A DNA stretch of 64,000 nucleotides from positions 1 through 64,000 of IMG/VR virus record IMGVR_UViG_3300045988_125590, one strand, 5' to 3'. Both the position numbers and the translations under genes were made by a program. The DNA comes from a virus. The notes below the pieces were generated by a model, which made no database searches, was not told the origin of the DNA, and was given only the letters and a program-made list of their open reading frames with translations. Below are positions 5,993-43,187 of the stretch, in pieces (the stretch's first letter is position 1; every line of letters begins with the position of its first letter).

Positions 5993-5994
5993 AA

Positions 5995-10811: not shown

Positions 10812-10888
10812 GGGTCACATCTGGGAATCGAACCCATTCTTCAATGTTCACAGCATTGCGTGCTAACCGTTACACTAAATGGACCATT
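10812..10888 (-). tRNA. tRNA-His (anticodon GTG), acceptor register uncertain
   Basis: Anticodon stem caatg/cattg with loop ctgtgaa; T-loop ttcgatt. Acceptor pairing imperfect by eye. Confidence 0.45.
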
Positions 10889-11232: not shown

Positions 11233-11302
11233 GTAGATATAAGGGAATTGAACCCTTCCTCTCAACCGCACAGGCAGGCTCTCACCAGTGAGCTAATATC
11301 TA
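11233..11302 (-). pseudogene. tRNA-like with intact acceptor, D and T arms but truncated / non-pairing anticodon arm
   Basis: Acceptor tagatat/atatcta; D-stem gctc/gagc; T-arm aaggg-ttcaatt-ccctt. Only 20 nt lie between D and T arms and no 5-bp anticodon stem is possible. Confidence 0.4.
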
Positions 11303-11383: not shown

Positions 11384-11582
11384 TTAAAACAGAATACATT
11401 TTAGAAATTAACCATGATAATTATCGATAAAATTGCTGATAGTATTCTTATTGTAACAAAATGGAAAAACAAAAACGGAATGCTACTAGAAATGTTCAAG
11501 ATTAAAAGTCTCGTATTATAGTCTAAGTTTGCTGTACGCATTCCTATAACAATCTTCTAAATTATACAATATTTAAGTGGAG

Positions 11583-11660
11583 ATGAGGGGAGTCGAACCC
11601 CTGTCTTACATATTTGCATCAAAGCATTCTTACAGCTTAGGTTTTAAAGACTATCCTTGT
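11583..11660 (-). ncRNA. tRNA-like 3' element (T-arm agggg-TTCGACT-cccct plus acceptor strand) without foldable 5' half
   Basis: gggagtcgaacccct on the plus strand. Upstream region does not supply a complementary 5' acceptor. Confidence 0.3.
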
Positions 11661-11946
11661 CTATTAGGGTTGACAGGATTGATATACTGCCAACTTCCAC
11701 CACTCTGTTCCTAAAGTATACAGAGAACTTATAGAATTGTTAATGGTGCACCTTTCTGTTCCTAAGCAAGTGCTGCTCGACTTATTAGGCAGCAGCCTGA
11801 TAAGCAGGAGTCATATTAATAACCCTAGCATTTATGGTTTTGTTGTCTTTCCAACTGTCTTTGCTGTGCTTCTTATCTCCTACGCAATCAAAACCAAACA
11901 TCCCCATAACAAGCAGTTTCGGGTCATGCTCAGGACTCTCTTTCAC

Positions 11947-12468: not shown

Positions 12469-12586
12469 AGTTTTTAATTAATAAATACTAATCTAAAACA
12501 GGAATCTATTCTTTTATAGCTGCTGCTTTTATAAGAATATATTTGCTGTTAGATTCCTTCTTAGCATGTCAAAAACGTAAATGGCG

Positions 12587-12674
12587 TCTAGGTGACAGGA
12601 CTCGAACCTGCATCCGCTTATTAAGCCTCCACCTGATCCCAAATCAGGGCTCTAGCCAATTAGAGTACACCTAG
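12587..12674 (-). tRNA. Type-II tRNA (Leu-like D-arm, long variable arm) with apparent anticodon TGG
   Basis: Acceptor ctaggtg/cacctag perfect; D-arm ctc-taattggcta-gag (Leu-like); anticodon stem cctga/tcagg; loop tttggga; ~20-nt variable arm; T-arm gcagg-ttcgagt-cctgt. Confidence 0.5.
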
Positions 12675-14956: not shown

Positions 14957-16738
14957 TCACGAATCAGTATGAACTGTATACTTTTTATTTTTACGCTTAG
15001 CTACACTAAGCTTCACAATTCTTACTCTGTTAAGTAACTCCTGATCCATTGCTGTCAAGAACAACTCTTCTGCATTTTTAGGAGCTTTGAACTCAGGTTT
15101 ATTTCCTCCTAAAATGAATGCTACAGCACTCGGGTCATAGCCAGACATATAGAAGAAATTAGGAGCATTCGCAAAGTCTTCAAACTTTACTTTGTTGTCA
15201 GCACCATACCATCCATTAGGAATATCCCAAAGGATAATCTTAAAGGAATTAACGTACTCCTTACTAAACCCTGCTTCACGAAGTCTCCTAATTGCAAGTT
15301 GGAAATTTGTAGATTTGTTAGTACCACATCTATCAAACTCCCCGTCACTTACGCAGAGGATTCCACTTGGGAAATCTCTTTCTTCAACTCCTTTCAATTT
15401 TAATCCTACAAAGAGATCTATTACAGACTGGAAATTGGTACTTCCGTAAGCCTCACAACGATCATTGATATACTTGTCAACTGGGGTTGCTCCATTCCAT
15501 CTAAGAAGTTTGCAGCTATTAGAGAACTCTGCAAATGTATTAGCAAAGTATCCTTCTAAGAACTCAGAGAAATACAATGCCATAGACTTGGCAATACAAG
15601 ATGAAGATACATTACACCCTCTAGCAGTTGATTCCATTGAGCATGAGGTATCTCGTACTACAAGTAGTGAAGACTTAGCATCCACATTCTCTTTGCCCGT
15701 CTTTACAAGTTGTGCAAATTGCGCATTGATTGTCTTTTCCTTGTAATCCTCTATATGTCGATAGTTTCCATCGAAAGGAGCAAACAGCTCAAACACATAT
15801 CCTGTAAACTTAGCTACAGGCTTAGAGGAAATCCAATCAATATACTTCTTGGTAAGATTGTGGTTTTCCAAGAAGTTAGAACCAACCAAGAGAGCTAAAG
15901 CTCTACCTGCAATGTGATCAAAGTTAAGTGAATCGTACAACTGCTGAGAAATAAGTTGTTGCCATTCATGGGCAATACCCTTAGACTTAATCTTTCGATA
16001 AGCTTTATAAGCAGATTCCTTCTCCAATTTAGGAGAGAATTTTCTAGCCAACCATCTACCTATAAGAGTATCTGCTTGAGACTCAAGCGTTGTACAGTTC
16101 TTATTGGTTCTAATAGTTGGTAGGTACTTACGTACCAGGTGGGTTGTATCAGGATTGTTAAGTCCTGCTAACAAAGTCAGATATAGGAAATTCCAATCTA
16201 ACTTTCTCTCTTTCCAACCGTGATATTGTAAGTCTAAAGAGAGCATTTGGATGACATCCTTCCATGAGCCTGCTGCAATGAAAAGAGGAAGATTTACGTT
16301 AAATGTTGCAGGTTGATTAATCGCCAACCACAGCATTCTCATAATACCTTCATTCCTTAAGCCTTGTCCACGCTGAACCTCTAGTTCTTCACTCTTGTTT
16401 ATAGTGACAATTTTAGACTTACGTGTGATGAGTCTGAAATAGAGTGCAAGTTTTACACAGAGAGTAGGATTTGAACTCCATAGAGTTTGCATATCCTTTG
16501 CCACCTCCTCATAAGAGCGAGGCTCTTTGAAATATGAAGCAGCAGCAAAGTTATCAACAAAATCATTTCCAGTTGTGGAATACTTCTTTGCTCCATTGCC
16601 TGACTCAGTTTCAGAAGACACTTCCGATGCTTGCTCTACGAACTGATTCTCGGCAGGTTTAATGTCGAGAAGTGAATTTACCTTCTTTTGAAATTCCATA
16701 CTTTTTACATGATTATTAAAAATTTTTATAACTTCCAT
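14957..16738 (-). CDS. vWA-domain protein (MIDAS motif D-T-S-C-S-M); speculatively Ro60/TROVE-like
   Basis: LLVVRDTSCSMEST is a DxSxS MIDAS motif at the start of a C-terminal vWA-like region. ~350-aa mostly alpha-helical N-terminal region. Sits next to the AAA ATPase. Confidence 0.5.
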   Translation of the reverse strand: MEVIKIFNNHVKSMEFQKKVNSLLDIKPAENQFVEQASEVSSETESGNGAKKYSTTGNDFVDNFAAASYFKEPRSYEEVAKDMQTLWSSNPTLCVKLALYFRLITRKSKIVTINKSEELEVQRGQGLRNEGIMRMLWLAINQPATFNVNLPLFIAAGSWKDVIQMLSLDLQYHGWKERKLDWNFLYLTLLAGLNNPDTTHLVRKYLPTIRTNKNCTTLESQADTLIGRWLARKFSPKLEKESAYKAYRKIKSKGIAHEWQQLISQQLYDSLNFDHIAGRALALLVGSNFLENHNLTKKYIDWISSKPVAKFTGYVFELFAPFDGNYRHIEDYKEKTINAQFAQLVKTGKENVDAKSSLLVVRDTSCSMESTARGCNVSSSCIAKSMALYFSEFLEGYFANTFAEFSNSCKLLRWNGATPVDKYINDRCEAYGSTNFQSVIDLFVGLKLKGVEERDFPSGILCVSDGEFDRCGTNKSTNFQLAIRRLREAGFSKEYVNSFKIILWDIPNGWYGADNKVKFEDFANAPNFFYMSGYDPSAVAFILGGNKPEFKAPKNAEELFLTAMDQELLNRVRIVKLSVAKRKNKKYTVHTDS

Positions 16739-17365: not shown

Positions 17366-17911
17366 TTATATTTTAATAGTATTGATAGCGTCTTCTATTA
17401 CATTTGATGCTTTCAGTAAAGCCTTGTTGCTGCTCAGTAGCTTTCCCTTAAGGTCATTTAGTTCTGCCTTTATAGCATTGCATTGTTTCTTTAGACTTTT
17501 GTTCTCCTCATATATAGAGTCGGCAACCTCGAGATCTGACCTTAGCTTAGCATTGTTTAGCTCCGCAGAAGCTTTTTGAAGATTCTTGTTAGTCTTTTTG
17601 AGAGACTTTAGTAAGCTCTTTATATGCCCTGCAAATAAATCCCTTATACTAAAGTAACTTTTTAAAAATCCTACAATATCTTCCTTATAAAAGCAAGAAG
17701 TTATTCTGAAGTCCTTGTCAGTAAAATAATAGCAGCCGTTGGAAAGCTTGACTATTTCAAAATCAACGAACTCATGTTCGCTGTAATGATCAGAAAACCT
17801 AATTGTAGTAGATCCTTTTTGATAATATCTAGAACTATTAGTAGAAGCTTTCTTATAAGAATCAGTCATTGAAACCAACAACTTGTGAATTGATTTATCT
17901 CTATAATCCAT
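17366..17911 (-). CDS. Hypothetical protein with C-terminal coiled coil
   Basis: 181-aa ORF; Lys/Leu/Asn-rich heptad-like C-terminal half. Confidence 0.4.
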   Translation of the reverse strand: MDYRDKSIHKLLVSMTDSYKKASTNSSRYYQKGSTTIRFSDHYSEHEFVDFEIVKLSNGCYYFTDKDFRITSCFYKEDIVGFLKSYFSIRDLFAGHIKSLLKSLKKTNKNLQKASAELNNAKLRSDLEVADSIYEENKSLKKQCNAIKAELNDLKGKLLSSNKALLKASNVIEDAINTIKI

Positions 17912-17929: not shown

Positions 17930-18012
17930 TAATGTTTGTAGCTCGAACAAGAATCGAACTTGCACGCCCATTACTGGGCAACAGATTTTCAATGAGCTTA
18001 CTCTCATTTGGA
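17930..18012 (-). ncRNA. tRNA-like element: T-arm (gcaag-TTCGATT-cttgt), acceptor-like stem and a cccagtaatggg hairpin, with no D or anticodon arm
   Basis: caagaatcgaacttg on the plus strand. Immediately followed (minus sense, upstream) by conserved leader copy B. Confidence 0.3.
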
Positions 18013-18049
18013 CTATGTCTTCTCCATGCATTTAAATATTTAAATGTTT

Positions 18050-18150
18050 AGGAGGCTGGTGTATAGTCTCTACACATTTATGTATTAATTACAATTTAGC
18101 TCGGCGTTATTATCATTTAAAGGCTGATACCTTCGCCGAATTAGCCAGCA
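18050..18150. repeat. Conserved leader element, copy B (ggtgtatagtctCtacacattta core plus flanks similar to 9385-9608)
   Basis: Alignment with copy A shows the ends gcaggctaaacggtgaaagtatacgcc...aacgccgtgctaaat vs gctggctaattcggcgaaggtatcagcc...aacgccgagctaaat, with paired substitutions. Confidence 0.5.
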
Positions 18151-18151
18151 T

Positions 18152-18649
18152 TCACGCAAGAGATTTCTCATCTTGGTGCTCATTACCTTTAGATCTGTTT
18201 CGAGAGCGAAAATTATCAGTCCGACTATGACAATTAGGACAAAGAATTTGTAAATTTTCTATCCTATTATCAGTGCTATCCCCATTTATGTGATGTAATT
18301 CACATACTAGAGGTTTACCAAGCCATTCTGTAATTCCACATATTTCACACTTATTTTCTTTCAAACCTAATTTATACACCAAATTTTTAGCATTAGAACT
18401 ATTTAGTGAGCTATGTTCACATAGTTTTGCTAAATATTTACCTTTATAAACTGGGTTACTAGGATTTTTATTCCAAGCTTTTCCAGTAAAGTGTGAATAA
18501 TCTACTCCAAATTCATCCATCTTTTTTCTTAGTGTTTTAGGATTTGAACCTTCTGGAGCTAATCCTAAACGACGACATAACTCTGCAAAGGAATAACAAC
18601 CCTTCACATTTTCTTCTAATAATTCTTTTGTATATTTTATCCTTTTCAT
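18152..18649 (-). CDS. HNH homing-endonuclease-like protein
   Basis: CEICG...ELHHINGDSTDNRIENLQILCPNCH is a classic HNH / zinc-ribbon motif. Located within the tRNA array. Confidence 0.75.
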   Translation of the reverse strand: MKRIKYTKELLEENVKGCYSFAELCRRLGLAPEGSNPKTLRKKMDEFGVDYSHFTGKAWNKNPSNPVYKGKYLAKLCEHSSLNSSNAKNLVYKLGLKENKCEICGITEWLGKPLVCELHHINGDSTDNRIENLQILCPNCHSRTDNFRSRNRSKGNEHQDEKSLA

Positions 18650-18750: not shown

Positions 18751-18993
18751 TTAAAGAAGTTTGTAGGAAGTTTCTATAAATTTATCAATTAAGTCATCTC
18801 TGTAGAAACAATCTACACCATAATCAAATTGCACTTTTCTTGCAATTTTATACTTAGACTCAATATAATTAAATACCTTCTGTCCTTTTCTCCAACTATT
18901 TGGGAGGTCTTTAATATTTTTAAAAATATCTCCTCTAAATTCTTCGTATGTCATAATTATTATTTTCAAAATAGTCCTGTACGATTTGAGCAT
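18751..18993 (-). CDS. Hypothetical small protein
   Basis: 80-aa ORF. Confidence 0.3.
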   Translation of the reverse strand: MLKSYRTILKIIIMTYEEFRGDIFKNIKDLPNSWRKGQKVFNYIESKYKIARKVQFDYGVDCFYRDDLIDKFIETSYKLL

Positions 18994-19406
18994 TGTTAAG
19001 AGGCTTGACAGGAAATTAGTTAGTGTATAGAGAATCGAACTCTATTTGTGACCATCACACCACAGCAGCAGGAGTATTCTCCAATTGAGAATATCCTAGA
19101 ATTAATCTATTAACCTTTGTAACTAATGTAAGGAATTGTGCAGCTTGGAGTCCAGGCATATGTCTTAGCTGCCAAATTTAAGTACCATTTAATTGCTTTC
19201 TTAAGTGTCTTCATCATAATTAATTTTTGGTAAATAACTAGTTAATCTTAAGCACAGGGATTCAAGTATCCCCTCTCATACAACTCTGAGTACTTTCTAA
19301 AGTACCAACTCACAGCTCTCTTTACAAATTTAAACATAATAATTAATTTTTAAAAGTTAAACAACCGCTAAATTCTTATAATCTATAATTATGCAAGTTT
19401 AATTGT

Positions 19407-19479
19407 TCGGGTGTGTGGGAGTCGAACCCACTGTTTTCTGCTTATGAGACAGACGTGTAAGCCGTTTCACTCACCCCGG
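19407..19479 (-). tRNA. tRNA with anticodon CAT (Met or Ile2 type), acceptor with mismatches
   Basis: Anticodon stem tctgt/gcaga with loop ctcataa; T-arm gtggg-ttcgact-cccac; acceptor has 2 mismatches by eye. Confidence 0.45.
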
Positions 19480-19805: not shown

Positions 19806-19894
19806 TGGTGTTCCCTATGGGACTCGAACCCATGACCCTCGGATTAAAAGTCCGATGCTCTCAAGCCTTACGGAACCAACTGAGCTAAGGGAAC
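19806..19894 (-). tRNA. tRNA-Lys (anticodon TTT) with enlarged (~21-nt) D-loop, CCA encoded
   Basis: Acceptor gttccct/agggaac; anticodon stem tcgga/tccga with loop cttttaa; T-arm atggg-ttcgagt-cccat; D region gctc-agttggttccgtaaggcttga-gagc. Confidence 0.55.
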
Positions 19895-21535: not shown

Positions 21536-21539
21536 ATTG

Positions 21540-21610
21540 TTGGACCACTCGGATTCGAACCGGGACTAACAGAATCAAAATCTGTTGTGCTACCATTACA
21601 CCATAGTCCA
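21540..21610 (-). tRNA. tRNA-Gln (anticodon TTG)
   Basis: Acceptor tggacta/tggtcca (U1-A72); D gtgt-aatggta-gcac; anticodon stem acaga/tctgt with loop ttttgat. Confidence 0.65.
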
Positions 21611-23440: not shown

Positions 23441-23875
23441 TTATATATCAAGACATATCTTTTGGACACTGAGTACAACATCCATACCATTCTCTCTTAA
23501 GAGTTTGATTGCCGCTTGTATATCAGGTCTTTTAAGTACATCCTTACGTCTCTTCTTATCATACCATTTATTATAATAGGTATTCACTTTCTTTTGGTAT
23601 TCCTTATAAATCTCACTAAGCTTATGAAAATGAATAGGCTTATTAGGACTATTAAAGCAATACAAGTCGTCTCCAATTTGCTTTACAAGTCCTGAGTGAG
23701 AAAATACCTTCCAAAATACTAGATTTGATGGTATTCCACAACTCTTGAATCCTTCTCGGATTGTATCACTTGTAAAAGGAGTTTTAGCTAGCTGATGGCG
23801 CAATGTATTTAATCCTACAATATGTACCTCAGCATCAAACTTTCTAGCCATTGATATTCTCCTTGTAAAGTCCAC
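23441..23875 (-). CDS. Hypothetical protein
   Basis: 144-aa ORF. Confidence 0.4.
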   Translation of the reverse strand: MDFTRRISMARKFDAEVHIVGLNTLRHQLAKTPFTSDTIREGFKSCGIPSNLVFWKVFSHSGLVKQIGDDLYCFNSPNKPIHFHKLSEIYKEYQKKVNTYYNKWYDKKRRKDVLKRPDIQAAIKLLRENGMDVVLSVQKICLDI

Positions 23876-24098
23876 GCATCTCCTCTACTAAGTCTGAGCA
23901 CCAATCCATAGTGCGACCGTGATACTTGGAGAATAAATCCACGCCACGGAAAGTTCTAGGCTGGATGTCATGAATCTGGTTGTTCTTGTCAATTGTAAGC
24001 TCCAATTCAAATGGGAGATTTACAACAGCCTTCTGCTGATTCTGACCAACCTGTGCATCTTTGTTTGTAGTGATAATAGCTTTAAAATTCTTTAACAT
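23844..24098 (-). CDS. Hypothetical small protein
   Basis: 84-aa ORF overlapping the start of the previous ORF by 32 nt. Confidence 0.3.
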   Translation of the reverse strand: MLKNFKAIITTNKDAQVGQNQQKAVVNLPFELELTIDKNNQIHDIQPRTFRGVDLFSKYHGRTMDWCSDLVEEMRGLYKENING

Positions 24099-24568: not shown

Positions 24569-24871
24569 CTACTTTTCCTCATCCATTTTCTTAATGGCTT
24601 CTTCGGAAAGTTTCCCTGCATTTTCTTCGGAAGGATTCTTCGTTTCTCTCATCTTCTTTTTAATTTCAGAAGCTTTAGAAAGAACTTGTCTCATTTGTGC
24701 ATTAATTGCAACATGTCCTGCCAAAACTGAAGCAAGAACCATAGCCTGTACTTCTTCAGGAAGCTCTTTAATACTTTCTTTAAAGATATGGTCCCCGCAA
24801 CTAAATCCCATTGCTACAGCTGAGGTTGCTTTGTTTACAACTTCAAAACTGTACATTTTCTTTTTCTCCAT
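24569..24871 (-). CDS. Hypothetical protein
   Basis: 100-aa ORF preceded (minus sense) by an A-rich leader. Confidence 0.4.
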   Translation of the reverse strand: MEKKKMYSFEVVNKATSAVAMGFSCGDHIFKESIKELPEEVQAMVLASVLAGHVAINAQMRQVLSKASEIKKKMRETKNPSEENAGKLSEEAIKKMDEEK

Positions 24872-25510: not shown

Positions 25511-25999
25511 CTAATAGCCTAAACTTTTATAATAAGGATAATTGTTTCTTGCTTTGTTGAACATAGTACGGATGTTAGAACTTAGAAGTTTTCTGTATTG
25601 GTCGACAATCATCTCATAAAGACTGAGATTTTCATCTATTCCGAATCCATTACATCCATACTTATCCTCCTTACGCTCCTCCCAGAATGAAATCGGCTTG
25701 GTTACAAGTCCCCATATTCCTCCCAAATAAATTTGATCAGGAGTCATACTTGGAATATCTAGTGTTCTAAATACTCCATAAGGACAAGGTCCAATATTCG
25801 AGTTCTGGAATCCAGTTCCCCATGCATCCTTATGAATATTCATAAGAGTGATGAGTGTGTTAGGTCCCTCAATTTTGTCAAGGAATCTCTGTCCTTCTAA
25901 ACACTGCTTAGTGTAGATAGACATTTGCTTAACGTTCTCTTGAACTTCAGCTTTATGGAACAATCTGTTCCAAATATTATTCTTTCTCATGATTATCAT
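25511..25999 (-). CDS. Hypothetical protein
   Basis: 162-aa ORF. Confidence 0.4.
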   Translation of the reverse strand: MIIMRKNNIWNRLFHKAEVQENVKQMSIYTKQCLEGQRFLDKIEGPNTLITLMNIHKDAWGTGFQNSNIGPCPYGVFRTLDIPSMTPDQIYLGGIWGLVTKPISFWEERKEDKYGCNGFGIDENLSLYEMIVDQYRKLLSSNIRTMFNKARNNYPYYKSLGY

Positions 26000-26653: not shown

Positions 26654-26989
26654 TTAGTCCATATGAATAGAGTTGATATAAATATCATAGTGTACCATTG
26701 GTCCAAATGTATATGCACATTTAAAATAACCTGCATAGATCCAACAATCACCAGTTTTCTCATTTCTTTTAATTTCTGGTAATTCTATTTTGAATCCTCT
26801 ATAGTCCTTATTGTGATACTCTTGTTCAACTTCATTCTTAATTGCCTCAATTGCCTCTTCTGGAGTATTGAAGAGTTTATGAGTAGACTTGAGATTTGGT
26901 TTCTCTGTATAGTTATTTCCTTCTAAGGAATAAACTACGAATACTGTATACTTTTTCATTTTTCTTACTTTGTTTTGTTTCACAGACAC
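26654..26989 (-). CDS. Hypothetical protein
   Basis: 111-aa ORF. Confidence 0.35.
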   Translation of the reverse strand: MSVKQNKVRKMKKYTVFVVYSLEGNNYTEKPNLKSTHKLFNTPEEAIEAIKNEVEQEYHNKDYRGFKIELPEIKRNEKTGDCWIYAGYFKCAYTFGPMVHYDIYINSIHMD

Positions 26990-27648
26990 AGAGCCATTAT
27001 TAATACTATCCAGTGATTAATAGTTTCTCTCTGTGTTTCGTCCAGTCTCATCAGTGTGAATTTTATAGTCTCCTGGCTGACTTATAAGTGTGTAAGGGTC
27101 TCTCTTACACTTTTAAGTACTAATATCATCATTATAGTTTCTATATGAGCACCCATATCCATTATAATAACGATTTCAACTATCTCTTACTCCTTCGTCA
27201 CGGGAAGCCTCTCTTTAAGCACCGAGGATATCGCTTTCTAAAATGTAGAGTCCTTTATCACTTACTATCTCCTCTACTAATTTTCATTCGGTATTTGTGA
27301 ATAACCGTTAGAACACATCCTGTTAATAACTCTTCTTTATGAAGAGAGAAAAAATCATCTGTTCTGCTGATGTTTTTTACTTTTTAGCTTAAGTTTAAAT
27401 TGTCATAAATTTTTTAGTTTAACCTATAATACTAAAAAGGTTTACTTATTAAATTTTTGTCGACTTTTATATAATCCCAATAATGGGAAAATTTTTAAAC
27501 TTTTGAATTTTGAGGATTTGATGGCGTACATGTGTGTGCTCTCGTTTACATCATTTCTCCTCTCTTAAAAAACATCACCAATTAAAGCAAACTTACTATC
27601 ACTATGAGAATATAACCAATCAAGAGCAATAGAATGAGAAAGAGAATT

Positions 27649-28329: not shown

Positions 28330-28441
28330 TGGACTCTCCCATGCATAACATATAAAATTTTTAATTTTTGGACTCTCCCGTTCATAATACTCTAAAATTT
28401 TTGGATTCCGACAAATAGGGGGAGGGGGGATAAAAAAAAAA
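28330..28441. repeat. Two imperfect ~38-bp direct repeats (ggactctccc[a/g]t[g/t]cataa.a...aaaatttttNNtttttgga) followed by a G-rich run and A10
   Basis: Visible directly. Lies in the leader of the minus-strand gene starting at 28255. Confidence 0.6.
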
Positions 28442-28452
28442 GCTAACCCAGA

Positions 28453-28716
28453 TTACTCTGGATCAGCTTCAAATGATTCAATTGTTTCCTTAAATTCTTT
28501 AACTTGTTCTGGATTGCCAGAATGATCTCTAACAGATAAAATATTAAGTGCATCTTCAAAATTAATATAGAATTGTTCATCTGTTAGTTTTAGTTTCTCT
28601 GCCTCATCAGCAGCTAGGGTAGCCATATGCAGTGCAATTTGGCACATAGTCCAAACTCTATTCTTTTCATTTGGAAATCTACCTGACTTAATCAATTTCA
28701 TTAATTCACTTCTCAT
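28453..28716 (-). CDS. Hypothetical small protein
   Basis: 87-aa ORF. Confidence 0.35.
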   Translation of the reverse strand: MRSELMKLIKSGRFPNEKNRVWTMCQIALHMATLAADEAEKLKLTDEQFYINFEDALNILSVRDHSGNPEQVKEFKETIESFEADPE

Positions 28717-28732
28717 AATACATATTTTTAAT

Positions 28733-28807
28733 TGGTCGCCCCATTCAGATTCGAACTGAAACGTGCGGTTTTAGAGACCGCTGTGCTAACCATTACACCA
28801 TAGGGCA
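28733..28807 (-). tRNA. Amber-suppressor tRNA (anticodon CTA), tRNA-Gln-like body, CCA encoded
   Basis: Acceptor tgcccta/tggggcg (U1-G72); D gtgt-aatggtta-gcac nearly identical to tRNA-Gln(TTG) at 21540-21610; anticodon stem gcggt/accgc with loop ctctaaa (C34 U35 A36 reads UAG); T-arm ttcag-ttcgaat-ctgaa; 3' ACCA. Confidence 0.7.
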
Positions 28808-28846
28808 ATAAGTGCTACTTTTTAAAAGGAGTAGCCAACCTTAAAA

Positions 28847-29287
28847 TTAAAACTTTTCATAAAGTTCAACCATACCTTGAATTTTATGCTGAAGATGCAA
28901 ACAAATAATGTCTGTAGAAATATCAATCATTTTTTCCACCTCTTGTGCTTGGTCTTCATCAAAGCTTTCTAAATCAAGAAGTTCATTAAATCTAGTTAAA
29001 TCCAATTTAGATTTAAGCTCATCCACTATTTCTACAAATAAATCATCATCAAGAGCTTTAATTCCTTCTTTATATTCCTCAACAATTTCCTTAGTGGCAG
29101 AATCATCAAATTCTCCATCTTGTTCAGGGATATTAGCTTCAATCTCTATTTTAAGATGACCATTATCTTTTTCCAAATGACATTTTAAATCATCACTTTC
29201 AAATGTCTCTACAGTTCCGTCTGGAATACATAAACCTAATATATTCGTAAGGTCTGGAAGTTCGTTAAAATTAATAGTTTTATCCAT
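28847..29287 (-). CDS. Hypothetical acidic protein (standard code)
   Basis: 146-aa ORF, highly Asp/Glu-rich. Confidence 0.4.
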   Translation of the reverse strand: MDKTINFNELPDLTNILGLCIPDGTVETFESDDLKCHLEKDNGHLKIEIEANIPEQDGEFDDSATKEIVEEYKEGIKALDDDLFVEIVDELKSKLDLTRFNELLDLESFDEDQAQEVEKMIDISTDIICLHLQHKIQGMVELYEKF

Positions 29288-29389
29288 GTTATTTTGCTTA
29301 TTTGATTACATAGCAAATATATATTCTCCTTCTAAAAATCAAAAATAGAATATTGTTAAAAACTATTAAGATTTAAATTTACCTCCATT

Positions 29390-30236
29390 TTTAAGAGTAA
29401 ATCCCTAACTAGTCCAACTTGGGACAGTTTGAAGATTAAAATCCAATAGTTTAGGCTTTTTAAAGAAAGTTAATCCTACATTTCCAGGAGATACATCATC
29501 AACTACTACAGTACCATTGGTATATGCTCTATATTGTACATTTGGATCATTGACTTTTCTAAAACCACTCTTCTACATAGCTTTATCCAGTTTACCAACA
29601 TACTTTGGAAAAGTCTTTTCACTAAGGACTTTTACTTTCTTCTAAATGAAAGTTGGAAATCTTTTAGACCCATCCCTCACATATCCTACAAACTTTAGAG
29701 GAAGGGAATTTGGAATTGCATTCCTTTTCAACATTTCACCACTTCCAACCTAAGTTATCTTTCCTACTGTAGTAGGAGAATTTCTTATTACAAGGGCTTC
29801 TGAACCCTATCCTATTTTATAAGGAGTTAAGGCGGATAACTTACCTACTGTAACTCTTCTAGAAACAGAAGGTAAAACACCTTTAAAAGAACTTGCAGGT
29901 CCTACAGTTATAAGGGAAGTTCCTATGTTCTTTACATTATCTTTAGCATAATTAAAATTAGACTATATTTTCTTCTAATCCTTTTCTTTAGAAGGGTCAT
30001 AATGAGTTTGCTTTCCAAATACTCCATATCCAAAGAAGTTATCATTATAGAAGTTCTACATATTCTAATAGTACTTAGCTTTGTCTGCATCATAGATTAC
30101 TGCTTGATTTCTTTTAGCAGCTTCCTATAATCTTCTCTACCTAATTCTAGCCTACTGTTCTTTAGTAAGTCGAAAAGCTAGAGGTTGTTTTCTAACAACT
30201 CTAGTATTATCCTATACTGCAATACCGCCTCTCTAA
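29390..30236 (-). CDS. Hypothetical protein, TAG-recoded (boundaries approximate)
   Basis: Minus-strand frame from ATG at ~30236 is open for ~280 codons if the ~13 TAGs are read as sense: MIKFQRGGIAVQDNTRVV... Confidence 0.3.
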
Positions 30237-30239
30237 AAC

Positions 30240-30461
30240 TTAATCATTCATTTTACCTTTCCAAATTCCAGTTACTGAATCTATTCCTAGTAATAAACAT
30301 ACTGCATATATAAAAGGTTCTATCATTAGAGGGGCTTGAATAGAAGATATTGTACAATAGACTAACACAAAAATAATAATAAGGAATCCAATTACTCCAC
30401 AGACTCTTTTACTACTAATGCCAGAATGTGAAGTAATCATCAACCTAAGAAATTCTTTCAT
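30240..30461 (-). CDS. Small two-TM membrane protein, holin candidate
   Basis: 73 aa; two hydrophobic helices (VCGVIGFLIIIFVLVYCTI, FIYAVCLLLGIDSV); near the virion-lysin gene. Confidence 0.4.
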   Translation of the reverse strand: MKEFLRLMITSHSGISSKRVCGVIGFLIIIFVLVYCTISSIQAPLMIEPFIYAVCLLLGIDSVTGIWKGKMND

Positions 30462-30970
30462 AATATTATAAGAATAATTATAGCTCTTATACCTAATTAA
30501 TATTATAATTATATATCTGTGCTATTGGATTTAATCCCTATTCTTTATTCCACTAATTAATAATCTATTTATCTTTATTTCTTCCTCGGTTCATTTCTAT
30601 ATTATAGAATGCAGGTCTATTATTATACCTCTTCTATTTTAATTTCTACTTAAATTGATTAAAGTTCTGTACATTCTATAAATTCTTATATCGCCCAACA
30701 GTCAAAGAATCAGATGCATTCTTAGTCCAATCCTGCAAGTTAGTTGCTCTTTTACCAAATGAATAAAATTTATTAGGTCTTCCATCTTCTATTAGAGATA
30801 AATGGGCTGTATCAAAAGCAGCCTAAGCTGGAATACCTTTATTTAGTAGAGCTACATATCTTTGAGTTATTTGGGGCATAGTGTTATCAATCTTATAGAG
30901 ATTCCCTCCAGTTTGTCTTTTTGGAACTAACTACATACTATACAAAATTTTAATTGTTATAACGGTATTC

Positions 30971-31957
30971 TCACGTCTAATATGCGAATTTAATTCGTTT
31001 ATTCATATTCATCTCATTATTACCAGCTCTCTCAAAGTGCTTTGCAAATACTTTAGTGGCGTCAGAAATAGTATTAGTGTTAAGTAGTTTCTAAAAAGCT
31101 TTACTTTCTGTAGAATTTAATTCTTCCCATATAAATTCTAGCTGCTATGATACAGTGGGATTCATTCCATACTTTTGAATGAGCCTCTATTTACGAGGAC
31201 CTAACCATTGTGCCAACCCAAAGGCTTTACTAGATTTATTTATTGCAGTGTGCTTTCCCCTGCTTTCCTACATTAGATTTCCTACTATTCCTCTAGCCTA
31301 AGCATCTGATAATCCTTTATTTTTAAAGAAGTTTAAAGCGTATTGATTAAATTGACTATCGTTTATAGTTCCTAGGATTCTTCTAACACTTTTAATTTTT
31401 AGATTTGGAAGTAGCCTTTCAACTATTCCTAATTTCTTTCCAGCTGCATCTATAATATATATCTATCCATTATCTATTCTACTTATAAGTCCTATATGCT
31501 AGCCACTAGGACTATTCTTACTTCCAAACCAGATTACATCTCCAGGCTATGCCTACTATAGATTAATTTCTTGTCCAACTTTCCCCTGCTAAGCTGCAGT
31601 TCTAGGAAGATTAATTCCTACACTATTAAAGACATACTTTATAAGTCCACTACAATCAAATCCAGAACTTGGACTAGAACCTCCCCAACTATACTTTCCA
31701 CCTAAGAACTATCTAGCCTAGTTAATTACTTTCTAAGCTGCAGAAGAGGTATTCTCAGATTTAGAAGGAGTATAATTAAAAGTAGGTTCCTGAATGTCCT
31801 ATTCAGGTACATCTAGGAAACTCCAGTCTATATTTGAGTCTTCTACTTCCTAAGTAGGCTACTACATTAACTGTATTTCCTGATAATTCTATTGCACATC
31901 TGGGGTAACTATATCTGGTGGAGATACCGATTCAAATGTTGTAAATAATTCAGCCAT
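30971..31957 (-). CDS. Peptidoglycan hydrolase: N-terminal NlpC/P60 (CHAP-like) peptidase plus C-terminal phage-tail-lysozyme-like domain; TAG-recoded
   Basis: Hand translation with TAG=Q: [25 protein letters not shown]...[29 protein letters not shown]...GQHIGLI (Cys-His NlpC/P60 core), then [37 protein letters not shown] (GIAQW-type lysozyme motif). ATG overlaps the upstream TAA. Confidence 0.55.
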
Positions 31958-32259
31958 TACATTAAATTATTTAAATTAATCTCAATTTTATATGGAATAT
32001 TATCTAAATATTCTTTTACATCTTTATTAGTCCAATCTATAGTACACCGAGCTATTTCTTTACCATCTTTAAAAAAGCAAGCATACTAAGAGGGTAACAA
32101 ACATGGACAAGCTTTAAAGAGAATCAAAGCTTGTTTAAAATTATTCGTAATAACTTTTTCACTATAATAAGTATTATGTGCAAATATTATTTTAATGCAA
32201 TCAAACGTATAGGTGTTATTTCTAACAAGTGATGAGAAGTCATTCTCCATTTCCTAGTT

Positions 32260-33619
32260 GATTGGAAGCCAATGCTCCTACTACTGGGATTCCTAAGGCT
32301 ATAGTTTTTCCATATAAGTTATTAAGAGATTCATTAGTAAATATCTATCTAGCATTATCTATTTGAGTAAGTTCTTCCTCAGATGCATTTGGGTGATTTC
32401 TTTTGTACTAATTTACAGCACCTGCTCTGGCTCTTGACTCTTGAGGAGTCTACCAATACTTTACTCTATCCCCGATCCAATGTCTAGCTTCCACTTCAGA
32501 CATTCCATATTTAGTTTGCAATTTGTTCATTAAAGTAGTAAACTTATTAGGGTCTATTTCCAGTCTATCATTAAGGGCTTTAGCATTTCTAAGAACCTTA
32601 TCTAGCGCATTCTATTCAATTGGAGATAAAGTTATTTGAGGTGTAGCCCACCCAGTTGAGCCGATATTAAAAGTACCGTGATGCATTCCTTCATGTATTG
32701 CTGTATAGTAGGGATGTGATGCCTAATTAGATATAGCTATAAAATGTTCAGATGGATACTAATTAGTATGTATGCTCTTAGGCAAGAATTGAGAGTATCC
32801 CTAAACGCCTTTACCCATATCCTCCACCATAACGTTTACTGGTCCAAACCTATCACTCATAGGGAGTTTTTGAGATAGAACTCTTCCCTATAAGTTCTAA
32901 AAGGCTTTTATTTCATCCTGGGTCAAACCTCTTGAAGCAGCCCTAGTTTCCCATTGTGGGCTTCTATACCACATCATTATATCTCTAACACCTTCATTAG
33001 CTTCCTATCTTATCTACTATGGTGTTAGCTTAGTCATCTGTTCCTTAAATGCCTTCATTTCTTTTGGAGGAATTATAGTAGAAGTAATAGGATCGAAGAT
33101 AAATGTAACATTCTGGTTAGAAGTTTTATTATCCTTAATTCCCTAAAACTTAACTGCATCTGCTCCAGACTATTCAGCTTCTCTAAGTATATGGTTGCGC
33201 AGTTTATTTTTACCCTGGGCAGGAATATCTCCAATCTATACCATTGGTTTCTTAAGAATCTATTGAAGCTATATTAATATTGGTCTATCATTCATAAACC
33301 CAATATCTTTTTTCTCTGATACCCACAATCCATTCTTTGGCGCTTCATGCTCTTTAGCATCCCACCTTCCTTTAAATACTCTTTTAATTTTAAAATTAGG
33401 ATTGTTAGTTCTATGCCATACTGTACGAGTTTCTGCAGGACTCCATCCAAGTTGTCCTGGAAATATATATGGAGCTTTGAGATCTTTTACTTGTCCGAGA
33501 CGCGATGCCAATAATCTACCCCTTGCTTTAGAGGCTAACTTAGGAGAGACTTTCTACAAGAGTTTGATAATTCCTCCTAATTGCTTCTTTTCAGTTTTAA
33601 TAGGTTCCCATCTTTTCAT
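32260..33619 (-). CDS. Hypothetical ~450-aa protein, TAG-recoded (boundaries approximate)
   Basis: Minus-strand ATG at ~33619 (MKRWEPIKTEKKQLGG...); open with TAG as sense to a TGA near 32260. Confidence 0.3.
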
Positions 33620-34341
33620 AATTAATGATTCCAAGTTCTAGCATTGGCAGCAAATGTAGCCCTCTTTCTAATCTTAGGATTCGGGCTATTCTTTCCTTTC
33701 TGAATGCAGGCATCAGTTACATTTCCTCCACAGTACTCAGTAAACTTACCTCTATTCTCCTTTTTAATACGTATCTTGTGTCCTTTTTTATAAAGTTCAA
33801 TTGGATCTGAATAATTCTCTAACTTTAAAGGGAGTTTAAGCTAAGAATTATCCTCAAAAAACTAAGAAAATTCGGTTAATTGATTCTAAGTATATTTCAT
33901 ATTAGATTTTGTTAAAAGTAACACATACTTTATTTGGGTATTCAAATTTAATATTTATATTTGTATAATTGAAATGAATATAACTCATAAGTTAAATAGA
34001 AAATTTCTCGTATAAATATACTTGTACAAACTCAAAGACTAATAGATTAACTATATAATATCTAACAAATGAGTTACAAAACAAACTTAAATTCTAGACT
34101 ACTTGTTGCTGTAATTTTAACTATAGTAGGAAGTGGTTTATTAATTGCTGGATTTTCAGTTCCTCCTCTAGGAATAATTGATGGTTCAGTTTTAGTAGCA
34201 TTCGGAGAGACTAGTACATTTGTCGCTGCATTGCTTGGAATAGATTACAATTATAAATATTAGATGTATAAAAACAAAGTTCTTTCAGGACTTAGTGGAA
34301 ATGGGAAATGAAATAATGAAGTAAACTAAATAAAGTGTAAT

Positions 34342-35211
34342 ATGAAAATTGATAAGCAGAATGGAACGGTTGCGTTCAATGATCAAGAGCATATTTATTG
34401 GAATGTAAATGACAATAAGAGATATGTCTCAGTTACTACTCTAATTCACAGATACACTCAAGAATTTGATAAGGAATTTTGGTCTTCCTATAAGGCTTTA
34501 GAAAAATTGCTTCCAAAGAAGTCATGGGAAATAGAAAAGAAGTCTTTACTAAATACTAAGAAGTTCAATAAGGAATTGTTGAGTTTATATGATATAGATG
34601 AGAATGATTTCAATGCGGTTCAGCAAGACATCTTAGATGCTTGGGATGAAGAAAATAGAAAGTCGTGTGAAAGAGGAACTAAAATACACTCAGAAATAGA
34701 AAATTCCTTTTATGATCATCCTACCGATATTTCTTTAAAGAAGTTTGGTTTAGGAGGAAAATTCGAGTGTAAAAAAGATTATTCAGAATTGGATTTAGAG
34801 CATGGAGTATATCCAGAGTATTTGATATATAGAGAATCAGATGATGGAATCTTACGCATAGCAGGACAGGTGGATCTTATAATTAAATCTGGAAATGAAA
34901 TAACAATTGTAGACCACAAGACAAATAAAAAAATTGATCAAAAGTCTGGATTCAATACAACTACAAAATCAAATACCAAGATGAAATATCCTCTAAATAA
35001 TCTGATGGACTGTAATTTTTATCATTACACTTTACAGCTCTCTACTTATGCTTGGATGTTGCAGAAGATAAATCCAAATTTCGTAATTAAGGACTTGATT
35101 TTGAATCACTATGATCATAATGGTAATAACACATTATATCATTGTGAGTATCTGAAGCATGATGTAGAAAAAATGCTTTATCATTATAAGAAAAGTCTCA
35201 TTTTGGAATAG
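34342..35211 (+). CDS. PD-(D/E)XK-family nuclease-like protein
   Basis: GTKIHSEIE ... RIAGQVDLIIKSGNEITIVDHKTNKK resembles the D...(D/E)xK core of RecB/Cas4-like exonucleases. Standard code, no TAG. Confidence 0.4.
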   Translation: MKIDKQNGTVAFNDQEHIYWNVNDNKRYVSVTTLIHRYTQEFDKEFWSSYKALEKLLPKKSWEIEKKSLLNTKKFNKELLSLYDIDENDFNAVQQDILDAWDEENRKSCERGTKIHSEIENSFYDHPTDISLKKFGLGGKFECKKDYSELDLEHGVYPEYLIYRESDDGILRIAGQVDLIIKSGNEITIVDHKTNKKIDQKSGFNTTTKSNTKMKYPLNNLMDCNFYHYTLQLSTYAWMLQKINPNFVIKDLILNHYDHNGNNTLYHCEYLKHDVEKMLYHYKKSLILE

Positions 35212-35338
35212 AAAAGAAGTGCAAGAAAAAGAATAGAATACTAATCATTATTAAGGGCATATTGAATCCCAATTTTGGATTAAATGTCAACACTATACAC
35301 TAAAAGCAATCTATTCTTTTTCTTTTTATTTTTAGATT

Positions 35339-38412: not shown

Positions 38413-40773
38413 ACAACTATGGAAGAAATTAAAAGGAAGAGAGGGAGACCTAAGAAGGTTAAACTTCCAGAGGAAATAAAAACCCTAGTACAGGAAGTCT
38501 AGTAGGAAAAGAAGACTGAACCTACTAAAATATAGGAACCTATACCAGAATCAATAAAATCTTCAGAATGGGATGTTCCAAAGGAAGAGTATATAAAATT
38601 CTTTGATAAAAGACTTTCTTATGAGCTAACAGGTTACAAGCCAATTACAGAAACTTAGGGATTGGACTTTGATCCAAGTTGGTTTACGGTGGCAAGAGAT
38701 ACCTATATAAGAACTGGAAAATATTGCAGCTATCGAATATATAGCAAACCTTATAATGACTTCTGGCATGAGGAATATCGTAGGTGTCGTGAAGGATATA
38801 CAGTAAATGGATATACACTAACTGGTCCGAATTACTATTATCTTAATTATTATCAACTTCCTAATATTGATGTAGAAATAGCTGGTAGTGGACGTAGTTA
38901 GATATTTCCTAAATTTTTGGTATTTCAATATGAGTTCTTCCACTACTTTGAAATATGTAGAAGGGAGAAGAAGGATGTATGTCTTATGAAGTCCCGTGGT
39001 ATTGGTTTCTCTGAAATAAATGCAGCTATTTGCGCCTGTATTTATAATTGCTTTAGAAACAGTAAGTGTATGATTACTACAAGTTTGTCTAATTACTTAG
39101 AGAAATCTCTTGATAAGGTATGGAATGCACTTAGTTTTGCAAATGAACATACTTAGGGAGGTCTTGCTAAACTTAGATAGGCTAAGGATACATAGTTCTT
39201 AAAAAGAGCTTCTACTTTAGTAAAAGACTCAAACGGTATACCATCTGAGACAGGTTGGATGTCTTAGATTGAAGGTGTTGTAGCGGAAACTGATGCTAAA
39301 ATTAGAGGTGACCGTATTGATTTACTAGTATATGAAGAAGCCGGTTCTAACTCCGTTTTAAGAAAATCTTACATTAAAGGAAAGGCTTTGATATACATTG
39401 GAGGTACAAAGTTTGGAATTAGGCTGGCTGGAGGAACTGGTGGTGATAAAGGTGCTGCCTTACAAGGACTTAGAGATATATACTATGATCCAAATGGATT
39501 TGATGTACTTCCATTTTATCATAACTATACAGAAGGAGGTGAGTGGGTATATACAGGATATTTCATTCCATCTTATATAGGAGCCATTACAGAATATGGA
39601 ACTGATATTAATGGAGTAAGAAGATAGTTACTTGATAAGAGAGGTTACTGTTTATGGAAAAACTATAAAGAATAGTTGGATTTAGATAGGGCTAATCTAT
39701 CCTCAAACCCTAGAGCCTTGATTGACCACTCTGCTGAGTACTGTTATACAGCTGAAGAAGCTTTTGCTTTGGAGGGTGATAACAAATTCAATAAGGTAAA
39801 TATTGCTGAGCAACTTACAAATATCAGGGCTCTAAAGAAATGTCCTCCAATCGAAAGAGGTTATATTGAATATAAATTCAAAGAAGGGGCTCATATTCAG
39901 TAGAATATAGATGGCTTTAAGTGGATTCCAAATTAGAATAGTAAACTTTAGATACTGGAACATCCAATTTGGACTTTGCCTCCAGTTGAGGATGAAAATG
40001 GAAAAGTAATCTGGAAGCCACCTACTGAAAAGGTTAGAAACCTGTATGTAATAGGAATAGATGGTATCGATATTGGTGCAGCGCAAACATCAGAAGCTAC
40101 TAAGGATCCATCTGATTTCTGTCTTGTTGTTTACAAGAGAGCTTATGGTATAGAAGAACCAAAATTCGTAGCACTTTATAAGGATAGACCTAACGATGTT
40201 AGAGAGTGCTATAAGATAGCTATTAAACTAGCATAGTATTATAATGCTACAATAAATATAGAAGCAACCAGATAGAGTATAATTCCATATGCACGAGAAA
40301 GGAAACTTCTTAATCTCTTTATGAAAAGACCTAGAGCTACACTTGCAGACTCTGCTAGAAATACAAATAAGCAATATGGAACTCCTGCAACTCCTGCTAT
40401 TATAGACCATCAGACTGACTTAATAGCAGACTATATAACTGACTATTGTCATCTTATATGGTTTGATGAAATGCTTGATGAATTTAATAGGTATACTGAT
40501 GAAAATAAGAAGAAATTTGATATTGTTGCAGCGGTGGCAATGGCTCTATTAGCAGACGAAGAATTGCAAGGAATTGTACCTAAAGTTGTAGAAGAGGTTA
40601 AAGATACCTGGTAGGATATAGGATTTTATACAGACGAGTATGGAAGAAGACGCTATGGAACACTTCCAAAAAATACTCCATAGATACGGTTTAATAATAA
40701 TTTTGGATAGTTATATGACGACTTAGGACCTAGAACAAGTAATACAAGACTATATTCTGGATATTTATCATAA
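38413..40773 (+). CDS. terL: Terminase large subunit (TerL), TAG-recoded; true start uncertain (first canonical in-frame start TTG at 38662)
   Basis: One frame open from 38413 to TAA 40771 with ~9 in-frame TAGs. Motifs: KSRGIGFSE (P-loop-like), DLLVYEEAGS (Walker B), VIGIDGIDIGAAQTSEATKDPSDFCLVVY and IIDHQTDL (RNaseH-like nuclease). Confidence 0.6.
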
Positions 40774-41009: not shown

Positions 41010-43187
41010 ATGACAAAGGATGAATTGATAGAGAAAACAGACAAAGCAATATCTGAACTAGTCTACCCTAAATATGATTTATAGAAAGCATATAACTACT
41101 ATAATGGTGTAAGAGATTCAGACTAGTTCAGATACTTAGAGGAGGTATACGGAGCTAATGCACCAACTACATTACACTTTACCCCTTTAATAAAGAAGCA
41201 TATTGATGCTCTTATAGGAGAATATTTGGGAACCCCTATAATTCCAAAGATATTCTGTAAGGACAGTTAGACAATAACTAATATAGATAGAGAAAAACAA
41301 TTAAAGATTGCCTCAGAACTTCATGAATATTTAAAAAATCATCTTAGAAATTCAGTTCTAAATTTTATAGATGGAAAGAATATTAATGATGGTCTCATTG
41401 AATAGCAATTGAAAAGAATAGTGGAAGATATAAATAATACGTTCGTATCGGAGTATGAGATTGCTGCCTAGAATGTAGTAGAATATATTATGCAATCTAG
41501 GGATACTGATATGATTACAGTATTGAGAGATCTTCTTCTAGACCTTTTAATTACTGGATACGCTTTCTATAGAGTCCTTCCTACGGTGGAAAATAATAGT
41601 ATTAGAATATAGGCTTTAAGCCCTCTAAACACATTCATTGATAGAAATTTTGAATCTCCATATATTAAAAACTCCTATAGAGTTGTAGTAAGAAGTTGGA
41701 TGACTAAGAATCAAATCTTAAATGAGTATGGTAAGGAAATGAAAGCCTCAGATAGGAAACTCTTAGATGAGAAGTGGGATTCAGTCTATGAGAATGCTAT
41801 GTATTACGTTAGAATGGGTGAAACTAATGGCATACCAAATACTGATGGAGTTTAGGCAGGTGTAGAAGTTACCCCAGGATATCCAGATAGTAGGTCTGGA
41901 ATAACCCATGAGCTTATTCCTGTTTATGAAGTTGAGTGGCTAGAAACCGATAAAGACTTTGTAATGTAGAGATATAAGACTGTTAGGATTGGGGAACAAA
42001 TATATATACTTAGAGGAAAAGATGAAAAGGTTATGAGAACTAAATCAAACCCTTCTTATTGTAGTCTTTCTATTAATGGTATATATTTCTTAAATAGAGG
42101 TACAAAGCCTTACTCAATGGTTCTAGCTTGTGCTCACCTATAGGACTAGTATGACCTTCTGAATTTCTACAGAGATAATCTTATTGCAAATAGTGGAACG
42201 GTTGGAGACTGGATTGACTTAACGTTAATCCCTGCTGAATTGGGAGTAAATCTTCCAGAAAGACTTATAAAATGGTAGGCTTTAAAGAAGCAGGGACTTG
42301 GTGTACTTGATTCCTCACAGGAAGGAAGACTAGCTTCCGGATAGGCTCCATTGAATACTATTTTTAATGGATTTGATAATACTGTTAAAACGTAGGCTGT
42401 TCAAGCTATACAGGTAGCAATAGATGCTATAGAGTAGACTACATCATCTATTACTGGAGTATTTAGGGAAAGATTGAATGGTATTGAGTAGAGAGATGCT
42501 GTTACTAATGTTAAAATTGGATAGAACAATTCATTTATTATAACTAAACAGTATTACCATCAAATGGATTTAATAGTAAATGAAATGTTACTAGACTGTT
42601 TAAACCTTGCTAAGGTTGTATTCAAAAATGGTCTAACTGGAACTATAATATTAGGAGATAAATACCAAAGAATATTTACTGCTCTTCCAGAGTATTTTAC
42701 AATGACTGATCATGATATTAGGATCATTACTAGTACAGATATTGTAAAGGATTTAGAGTAGATAAAGAATATTATTCCAGAATTTGTTAAATCTGGAGGA
42801 CTACCTCCTGATATCATTATTGAGGCAGTAACAAGTAAAAGCTTGCCTGATCTTAAGTATAAAGTTAGAAAAGCTATGCAAATTTAGAAAGATGAAAACA
42901 ACCAAATTCAGTAGTTAACTTAGTAGGTCTAGTAGTTATAGGAGCAGTTAAAGCAAGCTTCTACAGAGTTAAAGAAGTCTCAAGGTGAGATTGAATCTCT
43001 TAATAAAGCTAAGATAAGCCTTGAACAGAAAGAAATAGAAATGAAATACAAACTTGAATGGTACAAGGCCGATACTGATAGAACTTATAAGGAGGCTACT
43101 GCCGAAGAGTAGAAGAGACGTACTGAAGCAGAAATAGCATAGCTATCAGATGGAAACCCTTACAATGATAAAATTAGACAAAACTGA
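41010..43187 (+). CDS. Putative portal protein, TAG-recoded, C-terminal coiled coil rich in TAG-encoded Gln
   Basis: ~725-codon frame from ATG 41010 to TGA 43185, open apart from TAGs. Size and position (directly after TerL) fit a portal; no specific motif verified. Confidence 0.4.

Follow-up and report, generated by a model that had tools for sequence, protein, structure and literature searches.

A putative glutamine-type amber suppressor tRNA between standard and TAG-recoded genes of a large crAss-like phage

In the window, i.e. the whole 64,000-nt stretch of viral DNA that was analyzed, a tRNA gene of 75 nt with the anticodon CUA is found on the minus strand at 28733-28807 and is referred to here as tRNA(CUA). 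ARAGORN reports it at 28733-28807(-), with the anticodon cta at position 34, and the Rfam tRNA model RF00005 matches 28736-28807(-) with E=8e-10 and 57.6 bits, where the gathering score is 29. Its minimum-free-energy fold is a cloverleaf of class I. From sequence reading, the acceptor stem is UGCCCUA/UGGGGCG, with U1.G72, G2-C71 and C3-G70, and the 3' end consists of the discriminator A73 followed by a CCA that is encoded in the gene. The D-arm reads GUGU-AAUGGUUA-GCAC with G18G19, U8 and G10 are present, and a 5-bp anticodon stem, a 4-nt variable region and the T-loop UUCGAAU complete the molecule. The anticodon itself (28772-28774, minus strand; tRNA positions 34-36) is located in the loop C32-U33-CUA-A37-A38. 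Loops with A36-A37-A38 are typical of tRNAs for U-starting codons, which suggests an adaptation to such a codon instead of a raw point mutation in an anticodon. An earlier, sequence-only reading of this DNA had described the ctCTAaa loop, the encoded CCA, U1-G72, A73 and U35, all of them accurately, and had expected tRNA callers to find a CTA-anticodon tRNA on the minus strand, as ARAGORN does, with Rfam in agreement. The identity of 28733-28807(-) as a genuine tRNA gene with anticodon CUA is confirmed by ARAGORN, Rfam, the fold and the covariation reported below.

At a code boundary, the gene forms part of a short unit of strictly standard-code genes. Along the minus strand in the 5' to 3' direction, the order is a recoded ORF (30247->29366), a gap of 78 nt, ORF146, a small hairpin, tRNA(CUA), ORF87 and a terminator-like hairpin. 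ORF146 (28847-29287, minus strand) is the first standard-code gene and encodes an acidic protein of 146 aa (pI 4.1), with five Gln codons and 0 TAG, compared to 14 TAG against 6 CAA/CAG in its upstream neighbor. No Pfam or PHROG match was obtained for it, its AF2 model (pLDDT 77) gave generic helical matches only, and its family is confined to the phage's own lineage. Relatives are here loci that were found via the window TerL and taken from IMG/VR, with TerL 54-96% identical and contigs of 162-175 kb. Wherever the region is covered in these, an ORF146 homolog (42-99% identical) is situated immediately 5' of the tRNA, and the TAG-bearing ORFs start upstream of it. Immediately 3' of the tRNA follows ORF87 (28453-28716, minus strand), a standard-code ORF of 87 aa that is conserved in relatives and had no family match in profile searches. 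An intrinsic-terminator-like hairpin of 14 pairs followed by a T-run (28439-28470, minus strand) covers the ORF87 stop codon. The small hairpin GCUACU/AGUAGC (28814-28835, minus strand) ends 6 nt before the 5' end of the tRNA, and at this position relatives carry a hairpin whose sequence is unrelated. Compared to shuffled sequences, the stability of the window version is weak (z=-0.6) and that of the version in one relative (L006) is not (z=-3.7). Since the window hairpin is no stabler than its shuffles, it is a possible element only, which may serve in processing or in stabilizing an mRNA 3' end.

Within the 78-nt gap before ORF146, a pattern search identified a Bacteroidetes-type promoter-like motif at 29314-29343 (minus strand), TTTG-N18-TAnnTTTG, here TTTG-N18-TATATTTG. 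Such a motif fits the Bacteroidetes promoter consensus, which is of the -33/-7 kind, and 29343-29314 may act as a promoter. The pattern has five matches in the window, with 2.5 expected, and this number is not significant, as 11 out of 100 shuffles reach five. All five matches point along the local genes and four of them are intergenic, one of these four just ahead of the start of the tRNA array at 23292. A scan for sigma-70 promoters around the tRNA was uninformative (40 sites, with 40.4 expected).

The two sides of the unit differ in their genetic code. When TAG is taken as sense, ORF coverage per 4 kb bin beyond 28 kb increases from ~0.16-0.85 to 0.86-1.00, and no comparable gain is seen in the same bins when TGA is taken as sense. 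Minus-strand ORFs from 500 to 29287 contain 0 internal TAG. Recoded genes are found on both strands. A minus-strand block at 29366-33900, with 14, 9, 20, 7, 18 and 3 in-frame TAGs in its genes, includes a protein with NlpC/P60 and phage tail lysozyme domains (30971-31957, minus strand). The plus-strand late block at 36454-63481 has up to 26 TAG per ORF and includes TerL (38419-40773, plus strand; 19 TAG; match to PHROG 6681) and the portal (41010-43187, plus strand; 26 TAG). Altogether, 25 late ORFs have 211 TAG, 179 CAA and 91 CAG, so that TAG makes up 2.2% of their codons and 44% of their putative Gln codons, while CAG amounts to 17.1 per 1000 codons in early genes versus 9.6 in late genes. 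The tRNA had previously been assigned to an "early (minus) strand", which is wrong as stated, since the highest TAG density in the window is found in the minus-strand genes at 29366-33900. Its placement at the boundary between standard and recoded genes holds, but not its direct adjacency to the recoded genes, as the TAG-free ORF146 is situated in between.

Several early standard-code ORFs have TAG as their apparent stop, namely 23844-24098, 24569-24871 and 25511-25999, all on the minus strand. With an active suppressor, the second of these would gain 36 aa and the third 14 aa. As three plausible early ORFs stop at TAG, where an active suppressor would cause read-through, the codon carries two meanings in one genome. 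Separately, an exonuclease-like ORF at 34342-35244 (plus strand) has a TAG 10 codons ahead of its own TAA.

Because of the promoter-like motif and because the flanking ORFs lack TAG, we favor, on the basis of sequence, an independent unit that could be expressed under the standard code. Synthesis ahead of the late mRNAs, as the earlier reading had it, would be one of two scenarios. An alternative with the same suppressor function is that most of the tRNA comes from the 3' part of a late recoded transcript running 33900 -> 28439, in which case its supply would be coupled to late transcription and not run ahead of it. The TAG-dense block at 29366-33900 is indeed upstream of the tRNA in the same direction, and a search of the minus strand from 29366 to 28807 gave no terminator-like site, so that co-transcription with the late genes is possible. 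This would not be paradoxical either, given that a tRNA needs no translation and can be made together with recoded mRNAs. Against it stands the position of the promoter-like motif in the gap before ORF146, where it is identical in three relatives (L003, L004 and L009), as well as the strict lack of TAG in ORF146 and ORF87 in all lineages, which is expected if the unit must be translated before suppression. Production mainly from the late transcript is possible on these grounds, although we hold it to be somewhat unlikely.

The locus is conserved. Seven related IMG/VR loci have a CUA tRNA 8-10 kb upstream of TerL and on the opposite strand, as in the window. In an alignment of the window tRNA(CUA) with six of these seven tRNAs, i.e. 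seven sequences in total, all 21 base pairs are intact in 7/7, with double compensatory changes in 10/21 and none broken. U1.G72 and A73 are constant in all seven aligned sequences, while the pairs 2-71, 3-70 and 7-66 co-vary. The retained pairs and the compensatory changes show that tRNA(CUA) is no chance match and that its structure is under selection. One relative, L009, has a TerL 95% identical to that of the window and near-identical flanks, including the promoter motif, ORF146, the upstream hairpin and the start of ORF87. Its CUA tRNA (L009:93-164, to be compared with window 28700-28870) is the divergent allele of L006 and L010. It departs from that of the window in the acceptor, anticodon and T stems, with breakpoints only a few nt from the tRNA ends. 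From the aligned sequences, a suppressor allele appears to have been exchanged in place, as a cassette, between lineages. In one clade the CUA tRNA at the same locus (L007:2015-2104, minus strand) is 90 nt long, starts with A1 and has a long variable arm of 7 bp, a class II shape as in Tyr, Leu or Ser tRNAs; in this clade TAG alternates with CAA in four columns versus TTA in one. More distant phages (L014-L016, TerL 40% identical) have 7-8 in-frame TGA and 0 TAG in TerL, and L014:2648-2721 (plus strand) is a tRNA(UCA). Amber and opal reassignment thus alternate in this lineage. In three relatives (L009, L011 and L013) the TerL match extends over ~3.4 kb versus 2.35 kb, and the extra ~1.1 kb would fit an inserted intein or intron, both known from this phage group.

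The meaning of TAG was tested on the codon level with the DNA of the relatives, because database proteins may already be translations in code 15. For the same reason, 120 TerL homolog proteins with Q at the X positions were set aside as evidence. At TerL columns with TAG, the relatives have 567 aligned sense codons, of which 121 are Gln (CAA 88, CAG 33), with a Gln background of ~4%, 93 are Glu, 61 are Lys and two are His. Gln is both the most frequent and the most enriched residue. When only closely matching TerL sequences (95% identity or more) are compared, nine columns have TAG in exchange with CAG/CAA and three have it in exchange with AAG/GAG. Apart from TAG, TerL columns 179 and 475 hold Gln throughout, even in TGA-recoded relatives without any TAG. 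In the portal and three further genes, Gln is found at 33 out of 52 conserved columns that hold TAG; next come Lys at four, Thr and Glu at three each, and His at none. There are exceptions, i.e. TAG columns aligning with Glu, Lys or Tyr, such as TerL column 429, which is Tyr in all other phages. Judged by these alignments, Gln is clearly the best reading of TAG in the late genes, in agreement with the proteomic TAG=Q in other crAss-like phages (PMC9523058). Annotation of the genes beyond ~29.3 kb consequently requires translation with TAG = Gln (code 15).

The tRNA itself was compared with the phage tRNA-Gln(UUG) at 21539-21610 (minus strand), which has U1-A72 and A73. A near-identity of the two 5' regions had been noted earlier and is borne out, positions 1-26 matching at 23/26 with one indel. 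Over the whole molecule, identity is only 67%, a tie with tRNA-Arg(UCU). Given this tie at 0.67, overall identity has no discriminating power, and similarity alone is weak. Bacterial genomes were also scanned for the D-arm motif UGGUGUAAUGGU(N)AGCAC (also given as TGGTGTAATGGT(N)AGCAC), which gave at least 120 loci. Among the matches listed, 117 carriers are tRNAs: 110 tRNA-Gln, six tRNA-His and one with the anticodon UCA. The 17-mer form of the D-arm, found in the phage tRNA-Gln and the L006/L010 suppressor alleles, belongs to Gln in 109/110 among the matches listed, and the exact 18-nt D-arm of tRNA(CUA) to six tRNA-His and one tRNA-Gln, again among the matches listed, where this single Gln match is a Prevotella tRNA-Gln(CUG). 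As the 18-mer is thus also, and mostly, found in tRNA-His, the likeness of the D-arm alone is no proof of Gln.

The assignment to Gln is instead made because of U1, A73, the absent G-1 and the codon evidence. U1 is found in 102/110 of the bacterial tRNA-Gln among the matches listed, and within the window in tRNA(CUA), tRNA-Gln(UUG) and an atypical 70-nt tRNA called as His(GUG) at 11233-11302. Sampled Bacteroidales tRNA-Gln have U1-A72 and A73; tRNA(CUA) has U1.G72 in place of the former. Two features count against a Gln identity. Pair 3-70 is C-G in tRNA(CUA), while both the phage tRNA-Gln(UUG) and the tRNA-Gln of E. coli have G-C, and although U35 is present, position 36 is A, as in any amber suppressor, in place of the G36 that E. 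coli GlnRS uses as an identity nucleotide. Judged by its acceptor end, the body of tRNA(CUA) is of the Gln type.

Insertion of another amino acid (His, Tyr, Lys or Glu), or a pyrrolysine tRNA, has some points in its favor. The exact 18-nt D-arm matches tRNA-His of the CPR (Candidate Phyla Radiation), the best overall bacterial match to tRNA(CUA) among the matches listed is likewise a tRNA-His (57/72), Glu and Lys are common at the TAG-aligned TerL columns, and ARAGORN prints the label "tRNA-Pyl", a name that it gives because of the CUA anticodon only. Bacterial tRNA-His is, however, defined by G-1 and C73. The base before position 1 of tRNA(CUA) is T, hence G-1 is absent, and A73 takes the place of C73 as the discriminator; the window tRNA-His(GUG) at 10812-10885 does carry the extra 5' G. 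Together with the rarity of His codons opposite TAG (2/567, and 0/52 conserved columns), this led us to reject a His identity. A tRNA-Pyl has a 6-bp anticodon stem, a short D-loop without G18G19 and a 3-nt variable loop, with PylS/PylBCD genes alongside. The anticodon stem, G18G19 and T-loop of tRNA(CUA) are unlike this, and the ORFs scanned in the 64-kb window had neither a Pyl-related Pfam match nor a PylS-like protein, so this identity was rejected as well. We consider any amino acid other than Gln highly improbable. UAG is almost certainly read by tRNA(CUA) as glutamine, in line with the alignments and the tRNA body. The sequence-only reading had likewise taken the tRNA as the Gln-inserting suppressor for the recoded genes, and this is supported, as TAG aligns mainly with Gln codons of the relatives and the tRNA has a Gln-type body.

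Taken together, tRNA(CUA) is best interpreted, with a probability of roughly 0.88, as a working Gln-type amber suppressor of a large (~170 kb) crAss-like phage, reading the in-frame TAG of the late genes. In the mechanism that we propose, it would be transcribed along with the two small standard-code ORFs, on a transcript that starts at the motif (29343-29314) and ends at the terminator (28470-28439), and ordinary tRNA processing would free it. The host GlnRS would then charge it with Gln by virtue of the weak U1.G72 pair, A73, G2-C71, G10 and U35, features similar to those by which E. coli GlnRS can charge amber suppressors. The charged tRNA would compete with the host RF1 at UAG, and ribosomes would read the 211 in-frame TAGs in structural, packaging and cell-wall-hydrolase genes as Gln. 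Since late proteins would be incomplete until tRNA(CUA) is present, this would amount to a translational gate on the late genes, as in the published code-switch model. A classical counterpart is E. coli supE (glnV44), a tRNA-Gln whose anticodon is CUA and which competes with RF1 for UAG, where it places Gln. The Gln-type body with a CUA anticodon is common to both. Unlike supE, a chromosomal point mutant with partial suppression, tRNA(CUA) is encoded by a phage and would be the main decoder for 44% of the late Gln codons, and it has U1.G72, A73 and A38 where supE has U1-A72, G73 and U38.

The main benefit of the suppressor could also lie in harming the host, i.e. in the read-through of host TAG stops with effects on defense or other proteins, the recoding of the phage being secondary. 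Such a role is put forward by Yutin et al. (PMC7886860), and in a later paper (PMC12386605) for Zeta phages that have CUA suppressors but no recoding. In the present phage, the share of TAG among late codons and its presence in the essential TerL and portal would make the decoding of its own genes indispensable, which makes host harm as the main benefit an unlikely explanation. The two roles are nevertheless mutually compatible.

An RF2 gene or an RF1 antagonist elsewhere in the genome had been suggested as something to look for along with the suppressor, and neither of these, nor a GlnRS, was found in the 64-kb window of this ~170 kb genome. RF or aaRS domains were likewise absent from the early ORFs of the window. 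A search with a DNA pattern for the GGQ motif (GAGGQHVN) retrieved 11 IMG/VR viral contigs, none of them a relative of the window phage, a weak negative result as an exact match to the motif is needed. It is conceivable, though quite doubtful, that the motif, ORF146, hairpin, tRNA, ORF87 and terminator together form a dedicated "code-switch operon", in which ORF146 and/or ORF87 would be an accessory suppression factor. If so, these proteins could antagonize RF1 or make the host GlnRS favor the CUA tRNA, in the place of the RF2 or aaRS genes that other recoded phages have, and the invariant U1.G72 would be an identity mark specific to the code-switch system.

The mechanism and the phage group are already known (Yutin 2021, Borges 2021, Peters 2022), and the novelty that is left is in the details: the fixed ORF146-tRNA-ORF87 unit, the invariant U1.G72, the allele swap in L009 and the long-variable-arm tRNA of L007. 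Yutin et al. 2021 (PMC7886860) describe TAG->Gln reassignment with suppressor tRNAs in the late genes of the Zeta, Beta and Delta groups of crAss-like phages. For the Zeta group, they give genomes of 145-192 kb with many tRNAs, introns and inteins, and reassignment of TAG->Gln or TGA->Trp, mostly in late genes, with code switches over short phylogenetic distances. A table of CUA suppressors across Zeta phages appears in a 2025 paper (PMC12386605). The window phage resembles the Zeta phages in its many tRNAs, its introns and homing-endonuclease genes, its TAG reassignment restricted to late genes and its phage-borne CUA tRNA, and also in having close relatives that use TGA with a UCA tRNA. Compared to the portions of these two papers that characterize the group (PMC7886860; PMC12386605), nothing essential differs, while the invariance of U1.G72, the ORF146-tRNA-ORF87 order and the L009 swap are not among the Zeta features that those portions describe. 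Going by the published group description, the window phage is likely a member of the Zeta group. The genomes of its relatives measure 165-175 kb. Its TerL is 28-30% identical to those of classified crAss-like phages and 45% identical to those in unannotated human-gut "Bacteriophage sp." records.

In the code-switch model of Borges et al. (10.1101/2021.08.26.457843), to which the sequence-only reading corresponds, the host GlnRS is regarded as prone to charging amber suppressors. The present locus agrees with this model in having the suppressor among standard-code genes, adjoining recoded lysis and structural genes, and in the presence of a cell-wall hydrolase among the most TAG-dense genes of the window. 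It is unlike their "code change module" of suppressor tRNA, aaRS and release factor, as the neighbors of the window tRNA are ORF146 and ORF87. Proteomics by Peters et al. 2022 (PMC9523058) validated TAG=Q in structural proteins of crAss-like phages; these code-15 phages have suppressor tRNAs and TAG=Gln, and their genomes are other than that of the window phage. For specialists, the sharply delimited standard-code unit, the fixed U1.G72 and the swap of suppressor alleles are possible handles on the trigger of the code switch.

As for the host, 63/71 positions are identical between the phage tRNA-Gln(UUG) and its counterpart, likewise a tRNA-Gln(UUG), in a MAG of Mediterranea sp. (Bacteroidaceae). 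This likeness and the Bacteroidetes-type promoter motifs hint at a host among the Bacteroidales, which probably is the order infected.

Further features of the window include 20 tRNAs in total, a tmRNA, a group I intron and an HNH gene. A RAGATH-1 hammerhead ribozyme (26980-27083, minus strand; 74 bits, E=1e-10) is found among small early ORFs. When 26-46 kb was queried by megablast against GenBank phages, only two matches of ~100 nt were obtained, both at this ribozyme, the only stretch matching classified crAss-like phages (cr131_1 and cr272_1). The group I intron (17990-18200, minus strand; 57.7 bits) adjoins or overlaps the HNH endonuclease ORF at 18152-18649 (minus strand), and probably interrupts a gene whose parts include the ORF at 17366-17911. 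A four-gene cluster at 3435-7402 (minus strand) encodes an Amidoligase_2, a glutamine amidotransferase (GATase_6/7), a phiEco32-like COOH-NH2 ligase and a Peptidase_C26/class-I GATase; we know of no link between this amidoligase/GATase cluster and tRNA charging. The tmRNA (11575-11905, minus strand; Rfam RF00023, 63 bits) is full length and located in the tRNA-rich region, and was not called by ARAGORN. Just upstream of the tRNA cluster, there is a match to the abiF RNA motif (18975-19012, minus strand; 50 bits against a gathering score of 37). An extra tRNA with the loop CTCATAA (19407-19479, minus strand) was found by Rfam and missed by ARAGORN. The tRNA-Lys at 19806-19894 (minus strand) has an insertion of 14 nt in the D-loop region of the Rfam alignment, with different ends in ARAGORN, and the tRNA-Pro at 12586-12674 (minus strand) is 89 nt long, with an insertion after the anticodon arm. 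Lastly, a protein of 593 aa (14957-16738, minus strand), annotated as "RNA-binding protein" by PHROG 850 and carrying DUF2828/DUF7788, is encoded among the tRNA genes.
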